Assembly: GCA_964487665.1 (NCBI GenBank)
Contig: CAZARR010000006.1
Coordinates: 1 to 52,050, forward strand
Reading direction: 5' to 3'
Length of the DNA: 52,050 nt
From: an uncultured Pseudomonadales bacterium
GTDB taxonomy: Bacteria; Patescibacteriota; Microgenomatia; UBA1400; MFAQ01
This document shows positions 3 to 49,388 of this stretch, one piece after another. The position numbers and the translations under genes are program-made. Numbering within the stretch: the first letter of the stretch is position 1; every line of letters starts with the position of its first letter. A model generated the notes under the pieces. The model was not told the DNA's origin and searched no databases. It was given only the letters and a program-made list of their open reading frames with translations.

Positions 3-194
3 ACGAAAAAACAGAACCGATACCACGGCCTCTCAGGCCGTGTGAGGTTCATTAGGCTAAAAGAAAAAGGGCCGTGGGGGGCAAGATTGATCGATTGGTC
101 TGAGGAAGCGCGGAGGTTGATTGAGCTAGGATTGGCTAAGATCGAAGGGAACCTTATGGTACCAGTGCTGGAACCACAACCAACAGAACAATAA
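3..194 (+). CDS. 3' end of a hypothetical protein running in from the left edge (partial)
   Basis: Open frame from base 3 to TAA 192-194 (hand translation ...LIELGLAKIEGNLMVPVLEPQPTEQ*), followed by a terminator. Confidence 0.5.
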   Translation, partial: TKKQNRYHGLSGRVRFIRLKEKGPWGARLIDWSEEARRLIELGLAKIEGNLMVPVLEPQPTEQ

Positions 195-230
195 TAATTG
201 TTTGGGAGAAACAAGTTATGGTTAATCAGG

Positions 231-253
231 GGCCGGGGAAACCCGGCCTTTTG
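231..253 (+). terminator. Intrinsic terminator
   Basis: GGCCGGG-GAAA-CCCGGCC perfect 7-bp stem followed by TTTTT. Confidence 0.8.
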
Positions 254-355
254 GGTTGTGCGGCACATAAAGTGAAGCAGTGGGAATATTGACGGATGAG
301 TTTAATTGTTTTAGAATGACTTGTCTCGTGGATTGTGTTTTAATAATTTTTGTAA

Positions 356-3934: not shown

Positions 3935-4540
3935 CTAGACTTTGGCGACTTGTAAAAAATCAAGCTCGACTGGGGTCTCACGGCCAAAAATAGACACCAA
4001 TACTTCCAGTTTGCCTTTGGCTTCGTCAATTTTGCTGATTGTGCCAAGCATGTCGGTAAATGGACCATCGGCGACGCGGATAGCCTCGCCAGTGCTAAAT
4101 GTCGACTGGAACTTGGGAGCGGCTTGCTGACTAAAAGCCATAATGCTTTGAACCTCGGACTTGGGTAACGGAGTGGGTCGGTTGGCTGCTCCGACAAAGC
4201 CAGTTATTCCTTGGGTTGTGCGTACTGCCAACCATGAGGCATCGGTGACGTTCATTCGAACCAGCATATAACCGGGGAAAATTTTCTCTTTGATGATACT
4301 TTTTTTGCCCTTGGCGATGCGGATCTTTTCTTGGGTGGGGATGAGAACCTCAAAGATGTCATCAACCAAACCCATGCTTTCGGCCCGTTGCTTAAGTGTG
4401 CCAGCTGTGGAGGCTTCGTGTCCTGAATAGGTGTGGACAACGTACCATTTCCCTTCGTCAGGTTTGTCAGGGTTGACAATGACGTGATTGACTGATGGAG
4501 TACTATTTTGGTTGTTACTTTCTACTGGGTCGTTTGGCAT
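3935..4540 (-). CDS. nusG: Transcription termination/antitermination factor NusG
   Basis: WYVVHTYSGHE, IFPGYMLV, KOW GEAIRVADGPF, IFGRETPVEL. Confidence 0.98.
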   Translation of the reverse strand: MPNDPVESNNQNSTPSVNHVIVNPDKPDEGKWYVVHTYSGHEASTAGTLKQRAESMGLVDDIFEVLIPTQEKIRIAKGKKSIIKEKIFPGYMLVRMNVTDASWLAVRTTQGITGFVGAANRPTPLPKSEVQSIMAFSQQAAPKFQSTFSTGEAIRVADGPFTDMLGTISKIDEAKGKLEVLVSIFGRETPVELDFLQVAKV

Positions 4541-4541
4541 G

Positions 4542-4724
4542 TTATTTGATGATTTGGCTAAAAATACTAAGGAACAGTGCGTCGAGGCCTCCGAGATATA
4601 GACCGCAAAGGAGGCTGGTGAATATCACCAGTCCGGTCAGTCGAACGGTCTCGTCACGTTTGGGCCAGCTGACTTTTTGCAGCTCCAATCGAGTTTCTTT
4701 GACAAATAAAATCGGATTGATCAT
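4542..4724 (-). CDS. secE: Preprotein translocase subunit SecE
   Basis: ELQKVSWP motif plus single TM, immediately upstream of nusG. Confidence 0.95.
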   Translation of the reverse strand: MINPILFVKETRLELQKVSWPKRDETVRLTGLVIFTSLLCGLYLGGLDALFLSIFSQIIK

Positions 4725-4753: not shown

Positions 4754-5644
4754 CTAAATTGGGCGAGGGTGTGGGGTGCGGTGAATTTTTTGTAGTTTCG
4801 ACTGTTCGTTTATTAGCCTTGCCTCGGAACCGTTTACTAGTTTTTTCTTGTCTTGGCTAACCAGTAGAACAAATGTTCTAAATAACTCGAGCCATTGTGC
4901 AAAAGTGATTTGGGTCGGAGTAGCCAAAGGTAAAAATTGATTGTCAGCGGCGAGACGCGCAAATTGTTTTGGGGTAAAGATGTGCTTAAGGCCACTTTTG
5001 ACATTGGGAATGGAGTGGGTAAATGCATAAGAGACAAAATCTCTAAACAAATGTTTTTCATTTTTGGAAAGCAGGGGTGTTGGACGTTGGGCGATTTTGA
5101 ACAAAACAACTTGAACATTGGGGACGGGTTCAAAGTCAGTTGGGCTAAATCGGTGCACAATGTCAAAGTCGAACCAGGGCTTGTGTAGTACCGAAAAGAG
5201 AGTTTCGTGACCCAGGGGGCCTCCGGAAAACTTCGTAGCAGCTTCTTGCTGCATTAGTAAATAGCTATCTATTGGTGGGGTGGGGGCGTTAAGAAGCTTC
5301 CTTACGATATCAGAGGTGATGTTAAACGGGATATTTGAAAAAACTTTATACCTAGTGTTGGGCAAATTGAAGATTAGAAAATTTTCTCTAACAATATTGG
5401 TGTTCTTATTTTCTTTGAATTTGTTAACTAGAATTAAAAATAGCTTGGGATCTGCTTCAATGGCGATTACATGTTTGCATCTTTTAACCAAGACAGAGGT
5501 AATTGTGCCTTTACCTGGACCAATTTCTACTACAAAGTCGTCCTTCCCAATGGTTGACTCATCAATAATTTTATCTATCGTAGTTGGATTTACTAGGAAA
5601 TTTTGCGATAGTGAAATGCTTTCCCGCGGAAATTTTAGTGACAC
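4754..5644 (-). CDS. Erm-like 23S rRNA adenine-N6 methyltransferase (RrnaAD family)
   Basis: SQNFL, EIGPGKG, IEAD, SNIPFNIT motifs; C-terminal HIFTPKQF...ITFAQWLELF is Erm-like and lacks the KsgA RRK tail; start reassigned to GTG 5644, 9 nt below TATAAT. Confidence 0.8.
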   Translation of the reverse strand: MSLKFPRESISLSQNFLVNPTTIDKIIDESTIGKDDFVVEIGPGKGTITSVLVKRCKHVIAIEADPKLFLILVNKFKENKNTNIVRENFLIFNLPNTRYKVFSNIPFNITSDIVRKLLNAPTPPIDSYLLMQQEAATKFSGGPLGHETLFSVLHKPWFDFDIVHRFSPTDFEPVPNVQVVLFKIAQRPTPLLSKNEKHLFRDFVSYAFTHSIPNVKSGLKHIFTPKQFARLAADNQFLPLATPTQITFAQWLELFRTFVLLVSQDKKKLVNGSEARLINEQSKLQKIHRTPHPRPI

Positions 5645-5695
5645 GTTAGAGATATTATAATGTGCACACTTGATTGGAGCGCTATAATGGTTGAT

Positions 5696-5849
5696 GCCCC
5701 TAGATAGGGCAAGGCTAACGGGAGGTTTTTCCTCCACAAGCTTAAAGTATACGGGAGGACAAGTGCCGCGTCTCTTCGGGGATGTGACCTGTTCACCCAC
5801 CTCGTTCACTCGGGGAAAAATCCTGTACGCTTCCTATCTGGGGGTTTTT
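5696..5849 (+). ncRNA. Candidate ~150-nt structured non-coding RNA, family not recognised
   Basis: TATAAT 5683-5688; 13-bp terminal helix 5697-5709/5832-5844; internal helix 5745-5756/5821-5832; cUUCGg hairpin 5767-5786; U5 tail 5845-5849. Confidence 0.65.
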
Positions 5850-5874
5850 GAAATCTATAGGGTAAAATACGCGT

Positions 5875-6381
5875 GTGAGAAAAGAGGGGTCAAATCAGAA
5901 GGCGTTTGCGAGGTGGGATATGGCTAATGCGGGCAAGGAGTTTTTGTCTTTGGTTGGGAGGGGTCCGATACCAGCTATGTCTGTTACGGATGTGAGGACG
6001 CTGTTTGCTATTGCATTCTCTGAAGCTAGATTAAAATACTTAGTGGGTGAGAATTCTGTAAATAGGATCATAGAACTGCTGTCTTCTGACCCTAGGATTG
6101 TGGGTGTGGAGGCGACTCGAAGGGGGTCAAGAGAGGACATGAAAGGGGTTGATTTACGTGTTCGAGTCAGTGGAGATGATGAACATCGAGGGAAGTATAA
6201 TGTGCAGGTAAAAACTGGTATGTGCGGTGCGAGGAGCTTTATGGAAAAGGCGGGGAGAATGTTTGACGCGGGTATAGTAGTGTTGGCCGCAGAGATGGAA
6301 GACCCATTGGCTTGTTTTTGGGGTCAGGTGAGTTTGATCAATTTATACCGGAACGGTGGCTCGCTGCTGTCTTGGGACTAA
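5875..6381 (+). CDS. PD-(D/E)XK restriction-endonuclease-fold protein (putative)
   Basis: EDMKGVDLRV...YNVQVKT motif; TAAAAT 6 nt before the GTG. Confidence 0.6.
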   Translation: MRKEGSNQKAFARWDMANAGKEFLSLVGRGPIPAMSVTDVRTLFAIAFSEARLKYLVGENSVNRIIELLSSDPRIVGVEATRRGSREDMKGVDLRVRVSGDDEHRGKYNVQVKTGMCGARSFMEKAGRMFDAGIVVLAAEMEDPLACFWGQVSLINLYRNGGSLLSWD

Positions 6382-6411: not shown

Positions 6412-6924
6412 CTAAATCCTGTAGGCGTAGACGTTATCGACGGTTTTTATGATCTTGAGATGGGGTGGTTTGAACCGAGCAGAAATAATTATGGTTCCTC
6501 TCTTACACTCGCTGAGAATTTTGGTAATCAGTTTGGTGAACATTGCCGGCTGAACGTAAAAATAAACTATTTGGTATGGCGAAAGATCGTGCTTAAAAAT
6601 ATTTTGGTGGACAAAGCGCACGGATTTTTTGAAAAAAATCAGGTTAATCAGGCGAGAAAATAACACCAACAAGGGGTGGATCTCGACTCCTGTCGATTGC
6701 CATTTCATTTGGGTCGCGGCTAAAAAGACAATTCGCCCATCGCCTGAACCCAGATCTATAAACTTGCATTTTTGGGAAAGACCAAGTGCATGGAACATTC
6801 TTTCGACTTTTTTGGTGTCAAAGGGAGAGTAAAGCGCGCCAAAAAGGGATCCCCACCACAGTAAACTGCAAACAACTATTGCAGTCAGGGCACAAATAAT
6901 GCTGGCGGTAGTGGAAATGATCAC
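6412..6924 (-). CDS. Membrane-anchored class I SAM-dependent methyltransferase
   Basis: N-terminal TM, FIDLGSGDGRIV motif I, GVEIHP. Confidence 0.85.
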   Translation of the reverse strand: MIISTTASIICALTAIVVCSLLWWGSLFGALYSPFDTKKVERMFHALGLSQKCKFIDLGSGDGRIVFLAATQMKWQSTGVEIHPLLVLFSRLINLIFFKKSVRFVHQNIFKHDLSPYQIVYFYVQPAMFTKLITKILSECKRGTIIISARFKPPHLKIIKTVDNVYAYRI

Positions 6925-6961: not shown

Positions 6962-8284
6962 ATGTCGGCAAATACTGAGTTTGGAAGCAGGTTAGCCAAC
7001 ATAGCCTCTTATGGGGCTCAACATCAGGGAGATGGGGGAAATAGGTTTGCGAGTTTGAGGTACGATTGGGAGGGTGGGACAGGCCACGATGCACGATCTC
7101 CGGATTATTCCTCGAAGGCCGAGCTGAGGGCTGAGGCAATGGAGCGCGTTTGCGCTATTTTTGGGCGGCTTCCGTGCATAAAGGTTGAAAAAGGACAAGA
7201 AACCGAACATTTGGGTAATATGGCGTGGCTACTTCGATATGGTTCTGTGGCAAAAGTCAAAGTGACTGATGGCGATGATCGCACAGACGGCGGTGGAACA
7301 AGATTCTTTGCATCCGTGTGCCCATCGGAGACTCACTTGAAATCGGTTGTCTGTGCAACCCCGAATAGTATCAATCGTCGTCAATTGGGGATGGCTTTCA
7401 ACGCAGGCAGAGGGTATTGTGATGAGGCACTAATGGCTGATTGTTTTGCTCAATGGGTGTTGTGGGTATGTAATTTTCCCAGTCTGCCTGGTTTTTCGAC
7501 GGAAACAGAATGGTGTAAATATTTTGGCGGTGACTCCGAGAGACTTGGCGTTCCTATTGAGTTTGTCGAGGCTTATGTTCACCAGTACGATTTGTTGACT
7601 GAGCGGCGTAAGAAGATTTGGGAAATGCTACAAATCAATCGACATTGTATTTGGCAGCAGCAAGTTGGGGGTGGAAATCCATATGAACCCGAGATCGCCG
7701 AGGCCAGAGGGTCGTTAGCGGTGGATAACGTAATAGCATTACTAGAGGGTTTAGATTTCTTTGGTGGAGTGGAGGAATCTATCGCAAACGAACCTGATGA
7801 TGTTTTGGGGCGTGATTTGATTGTTCGGTTGACAGAGGAGGTTATTTCCCGACTATCTAGTCGGGGGATGTTGCCTGATGGTGGCCAATCGCGTTTTTTT
7901 GTGCAAGTTAAGTCGTGCCCGCGGGCTGTAAAAAATTTTATGGGTGCTCGAGGTGGACCAATGTGGCGATGGCGACAAAGTATAGTGGTGGTCAACGGAC
8001 ATTCGGGTGACAGTACTCTAATGCTGGCAGATTTATTTGGTCAGATTGCCGCGGTTTTGGCAATAAGGGGGAGTGTTGGGAATGATGGAAGAACTTCGCG
8101 GATCCGAGATAAAGCAGCTATTAGTCCAATGGCTGTTCTGAAGATTATTGACGAAATTCAGCCGGGGGTGTTGGCTGCCTTCAATGCTCGCAAGGCTGAC
8201 TTACACCCAGAATTAGTTGCCTTATTTAATGATGGTGGAAGGTTTGGTGCCATTGCGCGATGTAGCGTGAGCCAATGGGGATGA
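6962..8284 (+). CDS. Hypothetical protein with C-terminal PD-(D/E)XK-like domain
   Basis: DDVLGRDLIV...FFVQVKS, alignable by eye to the 5875 protein. Confidence 0.6.
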   Translation: MSANTEFGSRLANIASYGAQHQGDGGNRFASLRYDWEGGTGHDARSPDYSSKAELRAEAMERVCAIFGRLPCIKVEKGQETEHLGNMAWLLRYGSVAKVKVTDGDDRTDGGGTRFFASVCPSETHLKSVVCATPNSINRRQLGMAFNAGRGYCDEALMADCFAQWVLWVCNFPSLPGFSTETEWCKYFGGDSERLGVPIEFVEAYVHQYDLLTERRKKIWEMLQINRHCIWQQQVGGGNPYEPEIAEARGSLAVDNVIALLEGLDFFGGVEESIANEPDDVLGRDLIVRLTEEVISRLSSRGMLPDGGQSRFFVQVKSCPRAVKNFMGARGGPMWRWRQSIVVVNGHSGDSTLMLADLFGQIAAVLAIRGSVGNDGRTSRIRDKAAISPMAVLKIIDEIQPGVLAAFNARKADLHPELVALFNDGGRFGAIARCSVSQWG

Positions 8285-29684: not shown

Positions 29685-29710
29685 AAGATTAATTTTTGGT
29701 TTTACAGCTG

Positions 29711-29748
29711 AAGCCGAGAACGAGATGTGAAATCCCCGTCCTCGGCTT
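29711..29748 (-). terminator. Long hairpin downstream of the GC-rich gene (terminator-like, no clear U-tract)
   Basis: Minus strand AAGCCGAG GACGGGGAT TTCAC ATCTCGTT CTCGGCTT folds with G-U pairs. Confidence 0.5.
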
Positions 29749-29755
29749 CTGGCCG

Positions 29756-30931
29756 CTAAAACGCGGCGAAAACGAAAACGAGCCCGGCGCCGCCGCCCGT
29801 GAGGGCGACGACGCCGACGAAAACGAGGACGCCGGCGGTCACGAGGCCGGCGACCTCGAAGTCAGAAAGCTCCCGAAGGGCCTCGGGGACGAAGATGCTC
29901 CCGGCACGCACCGACCCCTCGGGGGGGGTCGTAAAGATGGGGAACGGTGCCGGTTCGGGGACCGGCACGAATCGGGAGTTGTTGTGGTACTCTCGGTCGG
30001 CCAAGGCCCGCGCCTCGGCCCACTCCCCCGTCGTTGTCGGTTTGTTTTTCTGGAGGCACTGGAAAAACTCCAGCACCTCCTTGCTTGCGGGGTTTCTTTT
30101 GGTGGCGCCGCGAAGTTCGCGGGCCACGCGATCCGCGGGGGCATCGAACGCTGTCGGCGGGGCCCCGATCCCCGTCAACAGCAGGATATGAACCCCCTTT
30201 ACGGTGATTTTCATCACCGTTCGGGTTCCTCCTCCCCGGGTGGCGTAAATGTCAACGCCGTAGGCGGCGGCTGCCGCCACGGCTTCCTCGATCAGGGGGT
30301 AGACGTCCTCTGGGCGTCTACCTCGAACGTGGGCCCAGAAGGCTTTCGCCAACTGGCCCGCCGGGCAGTAGCCCGGCATGATTGTTGTTCCCAGGCTCAC
30401 CACGGTGACGGGGTCACCGGGGTTGAACCCCCAATCCCGGAGGTCGTCCGGGTCGGCCGGCTGGGGTGTCCCCAGCGGGGGGGTGGGCAGGGGGACCGCG
30501 ACGGGGGCGAGGGTGGTGGGGGTGGGTGCATCCGCTCCCTCGAAACGGATGCACCAGAACAGGAACCACTCGACGCAGACGCGTCCTGTGGTTTCGGCGG
30601 TTGTCTGCGCTGCTGCCGGAGCGGCGGTGGGTGGCTCGGGGGGCCGCTCTGGTTGTGGGGGAACGGCCGTGGGGGCCGCGGTGCCCCCGGCAGTTTCCGT
30701 CTCGTTGCTGGCCGGGGCGCTCAGGGCACAGGAGCCCTTCACCACCCAGGCCAGGGGGAGGCCCGTTGTTTTTTTGCAGGAACTGGAGCACAACAGGCTC
30801 CGGCCCTGCGAGTCGGTGGCGGCCTGCCCGCGCGTTTGGCACGCGACGGGCGAGTCCGCCGAAGCGGCGGTCGGCAGCCCTCCGAAGAGGACCGCCGTGA
30901 TCAAAAATACTACGACTAACTTGCTGCGCAT
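29756..30931 (-). CDS. GC-rich exported protein: signal peptide, Cys-containing domain, Pro/Thr linkers, C-terminal hydrophobic anchor
   Basis: AGGAGG 6 nt before ATG 30931; MRSKLVVVFLITAVLFGG...ASA signal; 44/60 G+C at 29761-29820 by hand count. Confidence 0.7.
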   Translation of the reverse strand: MRSKLVVVFLITAVLFGGLPTAASADSPVACQTRGQAATDSQGRSLLCSSSCKKTTGLPLAWVVKGSCALSAPASNETETAGGTAAPTAVPPQPERPPEPPTAAPAAAQTTAETTGRVCVEWFLFWCIRFEGADAPTPTTLAPVAVPLPTPPLGTPQPADPDDLRDWGFNPGDPVTVVSLGTTIMPGYCPAGQLAKAFWAHVRGRRPEDVYPLIEEAVAAAAAYGVDIYATRGGGTRTVMKITVKGVHILLLTGIGAPPTAFDAPADRVARELRGATKRNPASKEVLEFFQCLQKNKPTTTGEWAEARALADREYHNNSRFVPVPEPAPFPIFTTPPEGSVRAGSIFVPEALRELSDFEVAGLVTAGVLVFVGVVALTGGGAGLVFVFAAF

Positions 30932-31317
30932 GGTTTTCCTCCTTTGCGCATTCATGGCCCCGATGGGCCGGCGATGCCAGGTAATGTTTAGTGTCCCCCT
31001 GGTTGGGACGATAGTTTCCTGCAAGCGTAGTTGCCGCAGGCTCGAGTGGGGGTCGGGGAGACCAACCCTCTTTCGAGCCCGTGGCTAAAACACTATAGGT
31101 TTGACTACACAGTAAACTCGTTCTCGGCTTGTCAAAGTACATCCCGCACTAAGATGCGGGGTTATTTATACAAAAAAACCGTGCGGGGGATTGGCTATTG
31201 GTCAATCGGCACAGTCAGGTTGTATATGGGTATGTATTTATTACATACTTGGGGGAAAAAGTCAAGTGGAAGTTACAGGCTAGTTCCCCAGAACACTTTA
31301 GCATATTCGAACAGTCA

Positions 31318-47345: not shown

Positions 47346-47906
47346 ATGGATCAACAGATAAGAGATTCGTTGACAAGTAAGTTAGAAAAAGTTGTTGAGA
47401 TAGTTCGCGAGGACTTGGCATCGATAAGGACCAGCCGTGCAAAGCCAGATTTGCTCAGCGGGATTGATGTCATAGCCTATGGTGGACAAAAAATGAAGTT
47501 GTTTGAGCTGGCTACTATTACTGCTCCTGATAATAATATGCTGATTATTTCTCCTTGGGACAAAGGAGTAATACAGGATATTGAGAAAGCAATTACCGTC
47601 AGTAACTTGCAGTTGAACCCGACTGTAAGCGGGGATTCGATCAGGGTGGTTATACCGGCTTTGACCGAAGAAAGGCGTCGCGATTTTGTCAAATTGCTGC
47701 ACCAAAAGTTGGAAGCTGGCCGGGTAATGCTTAGGCAGGTTCGCCAGGATGTAAAGGAAGAGGTCGAGGCTAGTGAAAAAAAGGATGGGGTTAGCGAAGA
47801 CGATGTCGAAAGGGTGTTGGAACTAATGGAAAAGACGGTTCACGATTATGGGACAAAGCTGGATGAGATGGGGCGAGTGAAAGAATCAGAGATAATGCAG
47901 GTGTAG
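47346..47906 (+). CDS. frr: Ribosome recycling factor
   Basis: IRTSRA, IEKAI..SNLQLNP, PALTEERRRDFVK. Confidence 0.96.
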   Translation: MDQQIRDSLTSKLEKVVEIVREDLASIRTSRAKPDLLSGIDVIAYGGQKMKLFELATITAPDNNMLIISPWDKGVIQDIEKAITVSNLQLNPTVSGDSIRVVIPALTEERRRDFVKLLHQKLEAGRVMLRQVRQDVKEEVEASEKKDGVSEDDVERVLELMEKTVHDYGTKLDEMGRVKESEIMQV

Positions 47907-47961
47907 GGCCAAATTCGAGGTCTGGAAATTTTTTTCGAGGGATATTATAATGCAGGTTATT

Positions 47962-48003
47962 GTCCGCGGTCGCGTTATGGCGACGCGATTGGCGGACTTT
48001 TTT
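47962..48003 (+). terminator. Long hairpin plus U6 (frr terminator or attenuator of the tRNA-like locus)
   Basis: GTCCGC/GCGGAC outer and GTCGCGTT/GACGCGAT inner stems, then TTTTTT; lies just downstream of TATAAT 47946-47951. Confidence 0.6.
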
Positions 48004-48006
48004 CGT

Positions 48007-48077
48007 GAACACCAACGCCGAATGGAGGCGGCCGGGCATCGTATGCCGGTGGGCTGGTTCGATTCCAGCTGGTGTTC
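48007..48077 (+). tRNA. Non-canonical tRNA-like RNA, anticodon-position CGU (Thr-reading) with atypical acceptor stem
   Basis: GAACACCA/TGGTGTTC 8-bp acceptor, D-loop GG, AT-CGT-AT loop, GCTGG-TTCGATT-CCAGC T-arm. Confidence 0.6.
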
Positions 48078-48155
48078 CTTCCCGCGAAAGCGGGCGTGCG
48101 GGGCAAACCCGTCTGCGTGACAACGATGTACACGCGGGGGTTTGCCCCAAATTAG

Positions 48156-48233
48156 TGGGGGGTCGTCTAAACGGCCTAGGACGGGCGGGCATCTGGTTGT
48201 CTGCCTATTAGGGTTCGAATCCCTACTCCCCAG
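48156..48233 (+). tRNA. tRNA-Gln(CUG)-like RNA with elongated anticodon arm
   Basis: T1-A72, G73, AT-CTG-GT loop on a 7-bp stem with a bulge, 3-nt variable region, TAGGG-TTCGAAT-CCCTA. Confidence 0.7.
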
Positions 48234-48236
48234 TCA

Positions 48237-48280
48237 GTCCCTCCTTCGCGCCTTTGGGCGTGGGGGAGGGACATTTTCTT
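48237..48280 (+). terminator. Intrinsic terminator closing the tRNA-like locus
   Basis: 16-bp stem GTCCCTCCTTCGCGCC/GGCGTGGGGGAGGGAC followed by ATTTTCTT. Confidence 0.75.
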
Positions 48281-48302
48281 TGTGCTAGAATTACTCGAGT
48301 AA

Positions 48303-49388
48303 ATGCAGATTTTGATTTTTTTGTTGATATTGTCAGTATTGGTTTTGATTCATGAGCTAGGTCATTTTGCTGCTGCCAGGATTTTTGGTATTAATGTTGA
48401 GGAGTTTGGGATCGGCTTACCCCCTCGGGCACGAAAGTTATTCAGTCAGGGGGGGACGATTTTTAGTTTGAATTGGTTACCGATAGGTGGTTTTGTCAGG
48501 CTAAAAGGAGAAGATGTAGAAGAAGAGCTGGCGGGAAATGACGTATTTTACAAAAAGAAATTGTGGCAAAAAATGACGGTGGTTTTGGCAGGAGTAGTTA
48601 TGAACTTTTTGTTGGGGGTGGCAATTTTTGGGGCTATTTATTCGTATTTAGGAATACCGACAAAAGTTGATCGAGTACGCATTACCGAGATTGTGCCCGG
48701 TAGTCCGGCCGATGAAGCTAAAATAAAGCCTGAGACTTATGTCTTTCGATTTGTCGGACCGAGTGGGGCGGGGGTTGATGTCAAAGACACAAAGTCGTTA
48801 GTTGAACTGATTAACGAGAACAAAGGAAAAAAGATTACGTTATTGGTATCGGGTGAAAAAAATCCGCAAGAATATCAATCGGTGATGCTTGTAGCACGTG
48901 AGAATCCTCCTGCGGGGCAAGGAGCGTTGGGGGTGGTTTTGTCCGATGTGGAACTGGTCAAATATCCATGGTGGCAGATGCCTTTTCGGGGAGCAAAAAT
49001 TGGTTTATCAGAGGCCATCGCCTGGGGCAAGGAAATTGCTCAGGGTTTGGGGGGGTTGGTGGTCAGGATTTTGTCGGGCAAAGGAATTGGCTCGGACGTG
49101 GCTGGACCAATAGGAATTTATCAGGTTAGTGGGCAGGTGACCAAGTTTGGATTGCTTGCTACTTTGCAGTTTGTAGCAGTGTTGAGCATCAATTTGGCGA
49201 TATTAAACATAATGCCCTTTCCTGCCCTAGACGGCGGAAGAGGAGTGTTTATGCTACTCGAAGGGCTACTCCACAAGGATGTCCGGCGCAAGGTTGAGGC
49301 AAAAATCAATATGGTGGGTATGGCGGCACTAATTGGCCTGATGGTACTGATTACCATGAGAGATATATATAAATTGGTGGTGAAATAA
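48303..49388 (+). CDS. rseP: RIP metalloprotease RseP with PDZ domain
   Basis: IHELGH, NWLPIGGFV, GSPADEA, NIMPFPALDGGR. Confidence 0.93.
   Translation: MQILIFLLILSVLVLIHELGHFAAARIFGINVEEFGIGLPPRARKLFSQGGTIFSLNWLPIGGFVRLKGEDVEEELAGNDVFYKKKLWQKMTVVLAGVVMNFLLGVAIFGAIYSYLGIPTKVDRVRITEIVPGSPADEAKIKPETYVFRFVGPSGAGVDVKDTKSLVELINENKGKKITLLVSGEKNPQEYQSVMLVARENPPAGQGALGVVLSDVELVKYPWWQMPFRGAKIGLSEAIAWGKEIAQGLGGLVVRILSGKGIGSDVAGPIGIYQVSGQVTKFGLLATLQFVAVLSINLAILNIMPFPALDGGRGVFMLLEGLLHKDVRRKVEAKINMVGMAALIGLMVLITMRDIYKLVVK

Follow-up and report, generated by a model that had tools for sequence, protein, structure and literature searches.

Published accounts attribute a 6S RNA, the RNA that sequesters RNA polymerase, to nearly every bacterium (PMC8414754, PMC8998176); it is defined as a rod with a large central bubble between closing and apical arms (PMC8876501). 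Our literature search found no paper discussing a 6S RNA from the Candidate Phyla Radiation (CPR, Patescibacteria). Here, we report an RNA of ~150 nucleotides (nt) encoded on contig CAZARR010000006.1 (GenBank assembly GCA_964487665.1) of an uncultured bacterium of the GTDB lineage Patescibacteriota, Microgenomatia, within the 52,050-nt stretch of DNA that was analysed (the window). The RNA is a real, conserved, promoter-driven gene and represents a new family absent from Rfam 15. Judged by its architecture and a motif shared with 6S RNA, it is most probably (probability about 0.7) a divergent 6S RNA, the SsrS analogue of Microgenomates.

A conserved RNA gene beside secE-nusG

The gene comprises the following elements, all on the plus strand.

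5661-5666, plus: weak -35-like hexamer TGTGCA, separated from the -10 by a 16-nt spacer
5683-5688, plus: -10 hexamer TATAAT, with the first paired base 7 nt further on
5696-5845, plus: RNA body (predicted 6S-type RNA), ~150 nt; 193.8 bits with model R1 (self), 96 bits with model R2, folding z score -4.84
5846-5850, plus: U5 tail abutting the 3' end of closing stem P1; possible terminator or 3' end

Covariance model R1 was built from the window sequence alone and R2 after a scan of metagenomes; both were applied to loci of at most 15 kb each (L numbers) and to the 52-kb window. Rfam 15 reported four tRNAs only in the window, and the RNA region had no match at the gathering score or at E<=10; the 6S, signal recognition particle (SRP), and RNase P models named as a check in the original prediction, which had been made from the letters of this DNA, gave no family match for the window. 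No match to the RNA was found in phage and plasmid collections (blastn), and no second copy was found within the window.

NusG, encoded 1.2 kb from the RNA, was 77-82% identical to proteins of Microgenomates-group CPR bacteria (e.g., Collierbacteria and Woesebacteria). R1 recovered full-length homologues (27-76 bits) in four NusG loci of relatives, all on the strand opposite to secE-nusG, and scored 19.7 bits on the window's reverse strand versus 193.8 on the plus strand. The four homologues had three blocks in common at constant spacing, GGGAGGUUUUUCCUC(C/U)ACA, CCCACC, and GGGGAAA(G/A)AUCC, and scanning metagenomes with this three-block pattern returned 35 loci with 24 unique sequences, bringing the family to a total of ~30 distinct sequences of ~145-175 nt, with one copy per locus. 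With R2 there were 41 matches, scoring 85-134 bits, and the 45 unrelated loci scanned had none; R2 also reached homologues outside the pattern in NusG loci L095-97 (82.7 bits, block 3 reading CAGGAAAGAUCC) and L093. Invariance of the three blocks in L054-L088 is imposed by the search pattern, and is independent only in L046, L047, L050, L053, L095 and, in part, L093. The last of these (L093, positions 125-279, minus strand) is a markedly divergent homologue (42.6 bits) from a metagenome-assembled genome with a NusG labelled Candidatus Saccharimonadia, in which GGAU:AUCC takes the place of the GGG:CCC at the base of the apical stem and block 3 has the sequence GGGGGAACA; through it, the family may extend beyond Microgenomates.

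In most loci the RNA was divergent from secE-nusG, often at 69-104 nt from secE. Both genes are its conserved divergent neighbours in the window.

4542-4724, minus: secE
3935-4540, minus: nusG

Most members carried a sigma70-type promoter ending 4-8 nt before P1 (TTGAC[AT]-17-TAGAAT/TTAAAT, or TATAAT), the homologues' -35 usually being TTGAC[AT]; a strict 9/12 promoter test was passed by 13/29 members versus 1.1% of random anchors. A U-run followed P1 in only some homologues and was absent from most. Downstream genes varied across loci, and in L050 and L053 the neighbouring genes lay on the other strand. The original prediction had called the RNA a stand-alone transcription unit whose covarying homologues should be sought; the unit is borne out by homologues with their own promoter and differing downstream genes, and the search found ~30 distinct covarying sequences, most of them divergent from secE-nusG.

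The conserved rod and the alternative fold of the window

From a sequence-only MAFFT alignment, RNAalifold predicted a rod made of a block 1:block 3 helix, an unpaired bubble, a GGGxGxC:GxxC(A)CCC helix, and a variable hairpin. Across loci, the ends of P1 were taken from model boundaries, a constrained-folding search having over-extended in several of them. The parts of the rod in the window are as follows.

5696-5709 with 5832-5845, plus: closing stem P1, covarying
5718-5723 with 5821-5826 and 5726-5734 with 5812-5820, plus: bubble-proximal helix, invariant blocks with covarying flanks
5718-5734, plus: block B1, ACGGGA-GG-UUUUUCCUC, 5' side of the helix next to the bubble, a helix corresponding to 6S P2 / downstream duplex; predicted product-RNA template
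5735-5752, plus: central bubble, 5' strand, CACAAGCUUAAAGUAUAC, opening with conserved (C/U)ACAAG
5753-5798, plus: apical arm, with GGG:CCC and GGACA:UGUUC (P3), an internal loop, and an 8-bp UUCG-loop hairpin (P4)
5799-5811, plus: central bubble, 3' strand, ACCUCGUUCACUC, giving with the preceding CCC the CCCACCU motif common to the Rfam 6S consensus
5812-5826, plus: block B3, GGGGAAAAAUCCUGU, 3' strand of the bubble-proximal helix

The near-invariant helix bordering the bubble, GGGAGGUUUUUCCUC:GGGGAAAGAUCC, pairs block 1 with block 3 as GGGA:UCCY, a GG bulge, UUUUU:AAAGA, and CCUC:GGGG. In nearly all sequences, the variable stretch 5' of block 1 paired with the one 3' of block 3, and these flank pairs covaried (columns 31-35 with 159-163 of alignment A4, equivalent to columns 31-35 with 177-181 of A5). 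The bubble measured 14-18 nt on the 5' side (24 sequences tabulated) and 13 nt on the 3' side (window). In the R2 alignment, 95.0% of rod cells were paired versus 79.8% in shuffles (0/500 shuffles as high), with 149 double-change cells versus 49, and slid controls gave 49-69%. For P1 alone, 87% of cells were paired versus 51% in shuffles, with 93 double changes versus 32 (0/500 as high). P4 showed compensatory changes at all 7 pairs, and no part of the family varied more than the apex, which differed in sequence, length, and loop.

The minimum-energy fold of the window sequence is branched, with the elements below.

5696-5708 / 5833-5845, plus: terminal helix, read from sequence
5721-5735, plus: GGAGG-U5-CCUCC hairpin
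5745-5756 / 5821-5832, plus: 12-position helix with one bulge pair (5749/5828)
5767-5786, plus: UUCG-capped 8-bp hairpin, also the apical P4 of the rod
5800-5815, plus: CCUCG/CGGGG hairpin

Every element listed in the original prediction (TATAAT, helices, hairpins, and U5) was found in the sequence at 5683-5850. The fold had 54 pairs (10 of them G.U) and an energy of -67.9 kcal/mol (z -4.84; matched by 0/200 shuffles), ranking 17th, after correction for GC content, among the 7,984 156-nt windows of the contig, with only two other loci above it. The module was self-contained, as adding flanks contributed no structure. On the minus strand the energy was -48.7 kcal/mol (z -1.51), near shuffle level; the G.U pairs, including an invariant U.G, suit the plus strand only, in agreement with the strand first proposed.

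The branched fold as a whole was not supported by covariation. P1 and the UUCG-capped arm covary, whereas the other helices behaved like shuffles: the 12-bp helix was paired in 65.9% versus 65.5% (a level reached by 223/500 shuffles), the helix around the GGAGG hairpin in 34.5% versus 33.5%, and the CCUCG hairpin in 74.5% versus 73.8%. The rod dominated the ensemble in 17/24 sequences, with alternative conformers within 0-5 kcal/mol of it in most members. Block B1, which is the 5' strand of the bubble-proximal helix in the rod, forms the local GGAGG-U5-CCUCC hairpin instead in the window's minimum-energy fold. Only the window and L046 also allow pairing between the bases 5' of the second GGG and the variable bases lying 3' of block 3. 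The 8-mer ACGGGAGG is present twice in the window (5718-5725 and 5751-5758, 33 nt apart). Either copy can pair with 5821-5826, which explains why the branched conformer has unusual stability in the window and L046 and not in the rest of the family. As judged from covariation, the evolutionarily conserved fold is the rod with a central bubble and not the branched fold; the lowest-energy fold of the window sequence itself is an alternative conformer of nearly equal energy. This serves as a caution, since the single-sequence minimum-energy fold looked convincing, yet was a non-conserved alternative conformer.

Identity of the RNA and competing readings

The covarying rod with its bubble (14-18 nt / 13 nt) has the architecture of 6S RNA, and the length of ~145-175 nt and own sigma70-type promoter fit the size (roughly 150-200 nt) and stand-alone organisation of 6S genes. 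When homologues were scanned singly, the Rfam 6S model (RF00013) was the top match in L067 (23.0 bits, E 0.005), aligned end to end (model 1-187) at the exact coordinates and strand of the RNA, and likewise in L078 (15.9 bits, E 0.21). In the RF00013 alignment, the family's GGG...CCCACCUGG falls on the consensus GGG...CCCACCUgga, and the invariant helix falls on the bubble-adjacent 6S helix. The GGG and CCCACC are near-invariant in the family and align to these consensus positions. CCACC belonged to the pattern by which L054-L088 were found; L046, L047, L050, and L053, found without that pattern, have it too.

Several observations weigh against a 6S identity. RF00013 had no match in the window even at E<=10, nor in L058, L095, and L093; its best score in the family (23 bits) lies well below the gathering score of 46.4, so that the family falls outside formal Rfam membership, and R2 with filters off had no match on E. 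coli ssrS (L098 1501-1684). The window's branched form beats the rod by 4.2 kcal/mol (-67.9 versus -63.7). The apical arm (~46 nt) is shorter than that of E. coli 6S, and the bubble-proximal helix is unusually invariant, an invariance partly imposed by the search pattern in L054-L088. The scans covered loci of at most 15 kb, and a canonical 6S RNA elsewhere in these genomes is possible. Finally, a protein family co-located in ~12 lineages may be a sign of another partner. On balance, the suggestion of a "divergent 6S-like RNA" in the original prediction is the best-supported reading, through the rod with its bubble and the sub-threshold 6S matches; the branched fold that accompanied it is not 6S-like.

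If the RNA works as E. coli 6S and B. subtilis 6S-1 do, the rod would mimic an open promoter and bind the sigma70-type (housekeeping) RNA polymerase holoenzyme, with the 3' bubble strand (CCC-ACCUGG...) serving as the -10-like element. Upon a nutrient upshift, the proximal 5' bubble strand and block B1 would become the polymerase's template for a short product RNA (~5'-..GGAGGAAAAACCUCC-3', containing ~GAGGAAAAACCUCC), the synthesis of which would prise open the invariant helix. Block 3, once free, could refold into a 3'-bubble hairpin (CC...GGGG) and a GGGR:UCCY helix resembling a "bubble collapse", pairings that would be those of the window's branched minimum-energy fold, and the RNA would be released. 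A 3'-bubble hairpin and a bubble-collapse helix are described for the E. coli and B. subtilis 6S RNAs (PMC8876501). In the present family, a 5-6-bp hairpin is possible in the 3' bubble in about half of the members, and fixed-column tests gave no covariation for these alternative helices.

The RNA might instead be the partner (guide, scaffold, substrate, or antitoxin) of a co-located protein family, the two forming one module. The original prediction had raised such a partnership with the adjacent protein, to which it assigned a nuclease fold. The family, which is uncharacterised and here called D...(Q/E)xK-S, is represented by two open reading frames (ORFs) in the window and by further members elsewhere.

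5920-6381, plus: 153-aa ORF (ATG 5920, good Shine-Dalgarno [SD] sequence), D...(Q/E)xK-S family
6962-8284, plus: 440-aa ORF, the C-terminal half of which is a paralogue in the same family
Elsewhere: L046 8416-9366, L047 479-1249, L050 3985-4686, L057 30-719, L063 612-1259
Elsewhere, continued: L078 307-897, L080 6575-7150, L086 8418-9041, L089 5191-5793

The two window ORFs share a domain (E 6e-4). Single-sequence searches through 5.8 and 1.84 billion proteins left both as orphans, no viral relatives turned up, and neither had a Pfam, PDB, PHROGs, or PADLOC assignment; a family profile had no Pfam or PDB relative, exact look-ups of the window proteins returned no record, and a single-sequence AlphaFold model of the 153-aa ORF (pLDDT, the model's confidence score, 41) was too poor for a fold search. 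Iterative and profile searches among the ORFs of the loci found the family on the RNA's strand, within 3 kb, in ~12 of ~26 lineages (the window with two copies, L046, L047, L050, L054/L069/L089, L057/L066, L063, L076, L078, L080, and L086), and a profile search found no members in 45 unrelated loci. Residues D78, K98, and Q136 are invariant and the motif reads (V/I)(Q/E)(V/I)KS, a pattern compatible with a PD-(D/E)XK fold without proving it. Of the proposed nuclease fold, the conserved D...(Q/E)xK motif thus stands, while no usable Pfam, PDB, PHROGs, or PADLOC match and no confident model (pLDDT 41) accompany it.

This co-location, its absence from the 45 unrelated loci, and the invariant residues favour a partnership, as does the order of RNA, sometimes a U-run, and then gene in the window, L046, L047, L057, L063, and L076, which is like type III toxin-antitoxin loci. 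Members mostly lie 21-170 nt up- or downstream of the RNA. However, the protein is absent from the flanks of about half of the lineages with enough flank (L055/L059, L073, L068/L074, the L056 group, L095, and L093), and its position varies: it lies upstream of the RNA in L078 and L089 and downstream in the others, with a distance of 1.4-2.8 kb in L050, L080, and L086. The bias towards the RNA's strand is what a location on one side of a divergent junction would predict, no tandem-repeat array was found, and Pfam and PDB searches assigned neither fold nor function to the protein. The RNA is also far more conserved than the linkage, and a 6S gene kept in synteny with an unrelated one has a precedent in E. 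coli ssrS beside the 5-formyltetrahydrofolate (5-formyl-THF) cyclo-ligase gene. We therefore consider a partnership unlikely: co-location in ~12 lineages speaks for the claim, and the many lineages without the protein and its shifting position speak against it. Equally doubtful is that the RNA is more than a 6S orthologue, a bistable RNA making up a new CPR RNA-nuclease module by secE-nusG with the D...(Q/E)xK-S family, or that a dedicated nuclease takes care of the turnover or release of a 6S-type RNA. The co-location is treated as conserved synteny, and the 153-aa ORF as such is not a conserved neighbour.

A second alternative is that the RNA is some other lineage-specific housekeeping or regulatory RNA, either a ribonucleoprotein scaffold or one that base-pairs in trans through its ACAAG / ACC or SD-like blocks, and that its 6S likeness is coincidental. 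In keeping with this, scores with the 6S model fall short of its threshold, most of the members tested giving none, R2 misses E. coli ssrS, the invariant GGGAGG / CCUCC / CCCACCUC segments resemble SD and anti-SD sequences, and 5796-5804 has complementarity to 5909-5917, the SD region of the 153-aa ORF. Against it, the rod, central bubble, variable arms, and conserved bubble border are the defining 6S layout, and the CCCACCUGG motif is shared at an equivalent position. To our knowledge, no other widespread class of bacterial RNA combines a rod, a central bubble, variable arms, and a conserved bubble border. The SD complementarity is mostly that of any CACCUC to any strong SD, and the 153-aa ORF is no conserved neighbour. 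A coincidental likeness is accordingly improbable.

The same complementarity between the anti-SD-like 5796-5804 and the SD at 5909-5917, together with two alternative conformers that could act as a switch and a U5 after P1 that could complete a terminator, would suit a cis-regulatory leader (riboswitch or attenuator) of the 153-aa gene. We regard such a leader as very unlikely, as downstream genes differ and lie on the other strand in L050 and L053, which excludes a cis-leader role; moreover, most members lack a U-run, the SD is not sequestered in the minimum-energy fold of the extended transcript, and no riboswitch family matched.

Between secE and the RNA lies a gene that suggests a further reading.

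4754-5644, minus: erm-like gene for a 23S rRNA adenine dimethyltransferase (Pfam 1e-49), in divergent orientation to the RNA, with GTG 5644 as its probable start

Inducible erm genes often carry structured leaders, and the RNA lies directly upstream of this one, so that it could be an erm leader or attenuator on the minus strand or an antisense regulator of erm. The near-shuffle minus-strand fold (z -1.5), the reverse-strand model score of 19.7 bits versus 193.8, and G.U pairs suited to the plus strand only all oppose this. The erm-like gene stands between the RNA and secE in this genome only; relatives have the RNA beside secE and no erm. Conversely, the RNA is absent from the nearest reference genome (L001) and from other erm loci, the closest erm homologues having upstream spacers of 75-88 nt without it. 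An erm leader is thus highly improbable and refuted for practical purposes, as the original prediction had held on the grounds of strand, and as close erm homologues elsewhere without such an RNA confirm.

That the element is a miniature inverted-repeat element, its 13-bp helix being terminal inverted repeats (with 2 DNA-level mismatches), or a chance palindrome is the least probable reading of all and is refuted by covariation and synteny, given a single copy in the window, a conserved syntenic position, RNA-level compensatory changes, and an own promoter.

Other candidates were also rejected. SRP RNA had no model match even at E<=10, and the apex here is variable; a type III toxin-antitoxin RNA lacked tandem repeats (only the 8-mer is duplicated, 33 nt apart) and a ToxN/AbiQ-type match; for a retron msr-msd, no RVT domain was found in neighbouring ORFs or in the called genes of homologous loci; and RNase P, tmRNA, Y RNA, riboswitches, and ribozymes were dropped for want of model matches.

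Other features, significance, and comparison with known RNAs

The closest homologue of the erm-like protein was only ~53% identical. The database model of the gene (348 aa, 4754-5809) wrongly extends into the RNA, homologues being ~293-305 aa long. Its probable start, GTG 5644, has a minus-strand TATAAT (5659-5654) before it and no SD, and a leaderless mRNA is possible. A gene at 6412-6924 on the minus strand, flanked by the two paralogous orphan ORFs, encodes a 170-aa DOT1-like methyltransferase (Pfam 1.8e-9) with an N-terminal hydrophobic segment and a weak PADLOC "mad2" match (4e-8).

The 11-mer ATATTATAATG had exact copies contig-wide only at 5652-5662 and 47942-47952 (plus strand); counting variants with one mismatch, there were 4 matches, a number reached by 0/100 shuffles. 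Both exact copies lie just upstream of structured noncoding RNA regions, and the 11-mer may be a strong extended -10 element. Very stable noncoding structures are clustered at 47942-48290 (plus strand), between ORFs 47346-47906 and 48303-49388, among them a hairpin with a U-run (~47963-48005), two further hairpins, and a terminator-like hairpin. In this cluster, ARAGORN called a tRNA-Thr(cgt) at 48008-48078 that the Rfam tRNA model did not report, and a tRNA-like cloverleaf at ~48155-48232 has a GGGUUCGAAUCCC T-arm, yet a 9-bp "anticodon" stem and a 6-nt loop. The segment 48079-48305 folds at -117.7 kcal/mol (z -7.4).

A 391-aa ORF (30931 to 29759, minus strand; region 29700-31000) has a GC content of 67-74% versus ~45% for the contig, which accounts for the window's most stable folds; its product has a signal-peptide-like N-terminus and no Pfam match, and the ORF is either horizontally acquired or an assembly chimera. 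GC skew, (G-C)/(G+C), was +0.1 to +0.36 on the plus strand over nearly all 52 kb, whatever the gene orientation.

The covariance model and ~30 sequences provide a candidate global regulator of RNA polymerase for Microgenomates, which could be relevant to entry into and exit from dormancy in ultra-small, probably host-dependent cells. As a probable 6S RNA, the family would expose a blind spot of the Rfam 6S model and fill a gap in CPR annotation. It also comes with a predicted, nearly invariant product-RNA sequence, and flags an uncharacterised protein family travelling with the RNA.

Among known systems, SRP RNA (4.5S; RF00169 / RF01854) is, like this family, a small, hairpin-shaped housekeeping RNA with internal loops and its own promoter, but it conserves the apex (domain IV, with a GNAR tetraloop and symmetric and asymmetric loops), which varies here. 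The RNAs of type III toxin-antitoxin systems (ToxI and relatives) resemble several of our loci, in which a structured RNA lies just upstream of the gene for a small protein and a U-run sometimes separates the two. A further 6S-like RNA is Ms1, which binds the RNA polymerase core, is ~300 nt long, and is not known outside Actinobacteria. Ms1 is akin to 6S RNA in structure, being a rod-like RNA that binds RNA polymerase (PMC9130861).

6S RNA itself (E. coli 6S, B. subtilis 6S-1, and A. aeolicus 6S) is, like the family, a stand-alone noncoding RNA (~150-185 nt) folded as a rod with a central bubble. In both, sequence varies in the arms and is conserved at the borders of the bubble, and the family's GGG...CCCACCUGG matches the 6S consensus. 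The family may also share with 6S RNA the potential to form a 3'-bubble hairpin and a helix of the collapse type after opening of the bubble-proximal helix (PMC8876501). Unlike 6S RNA, the family has a near-invariant 15-nt block that is also self-complementary (GGAGG-U5-CCUCC), which makes the free RNA bistable. The family is divergent from secE-nusG, whereas E. coli ssrS instead precedes the 5-formyl-THF cyclo-ligase gene.

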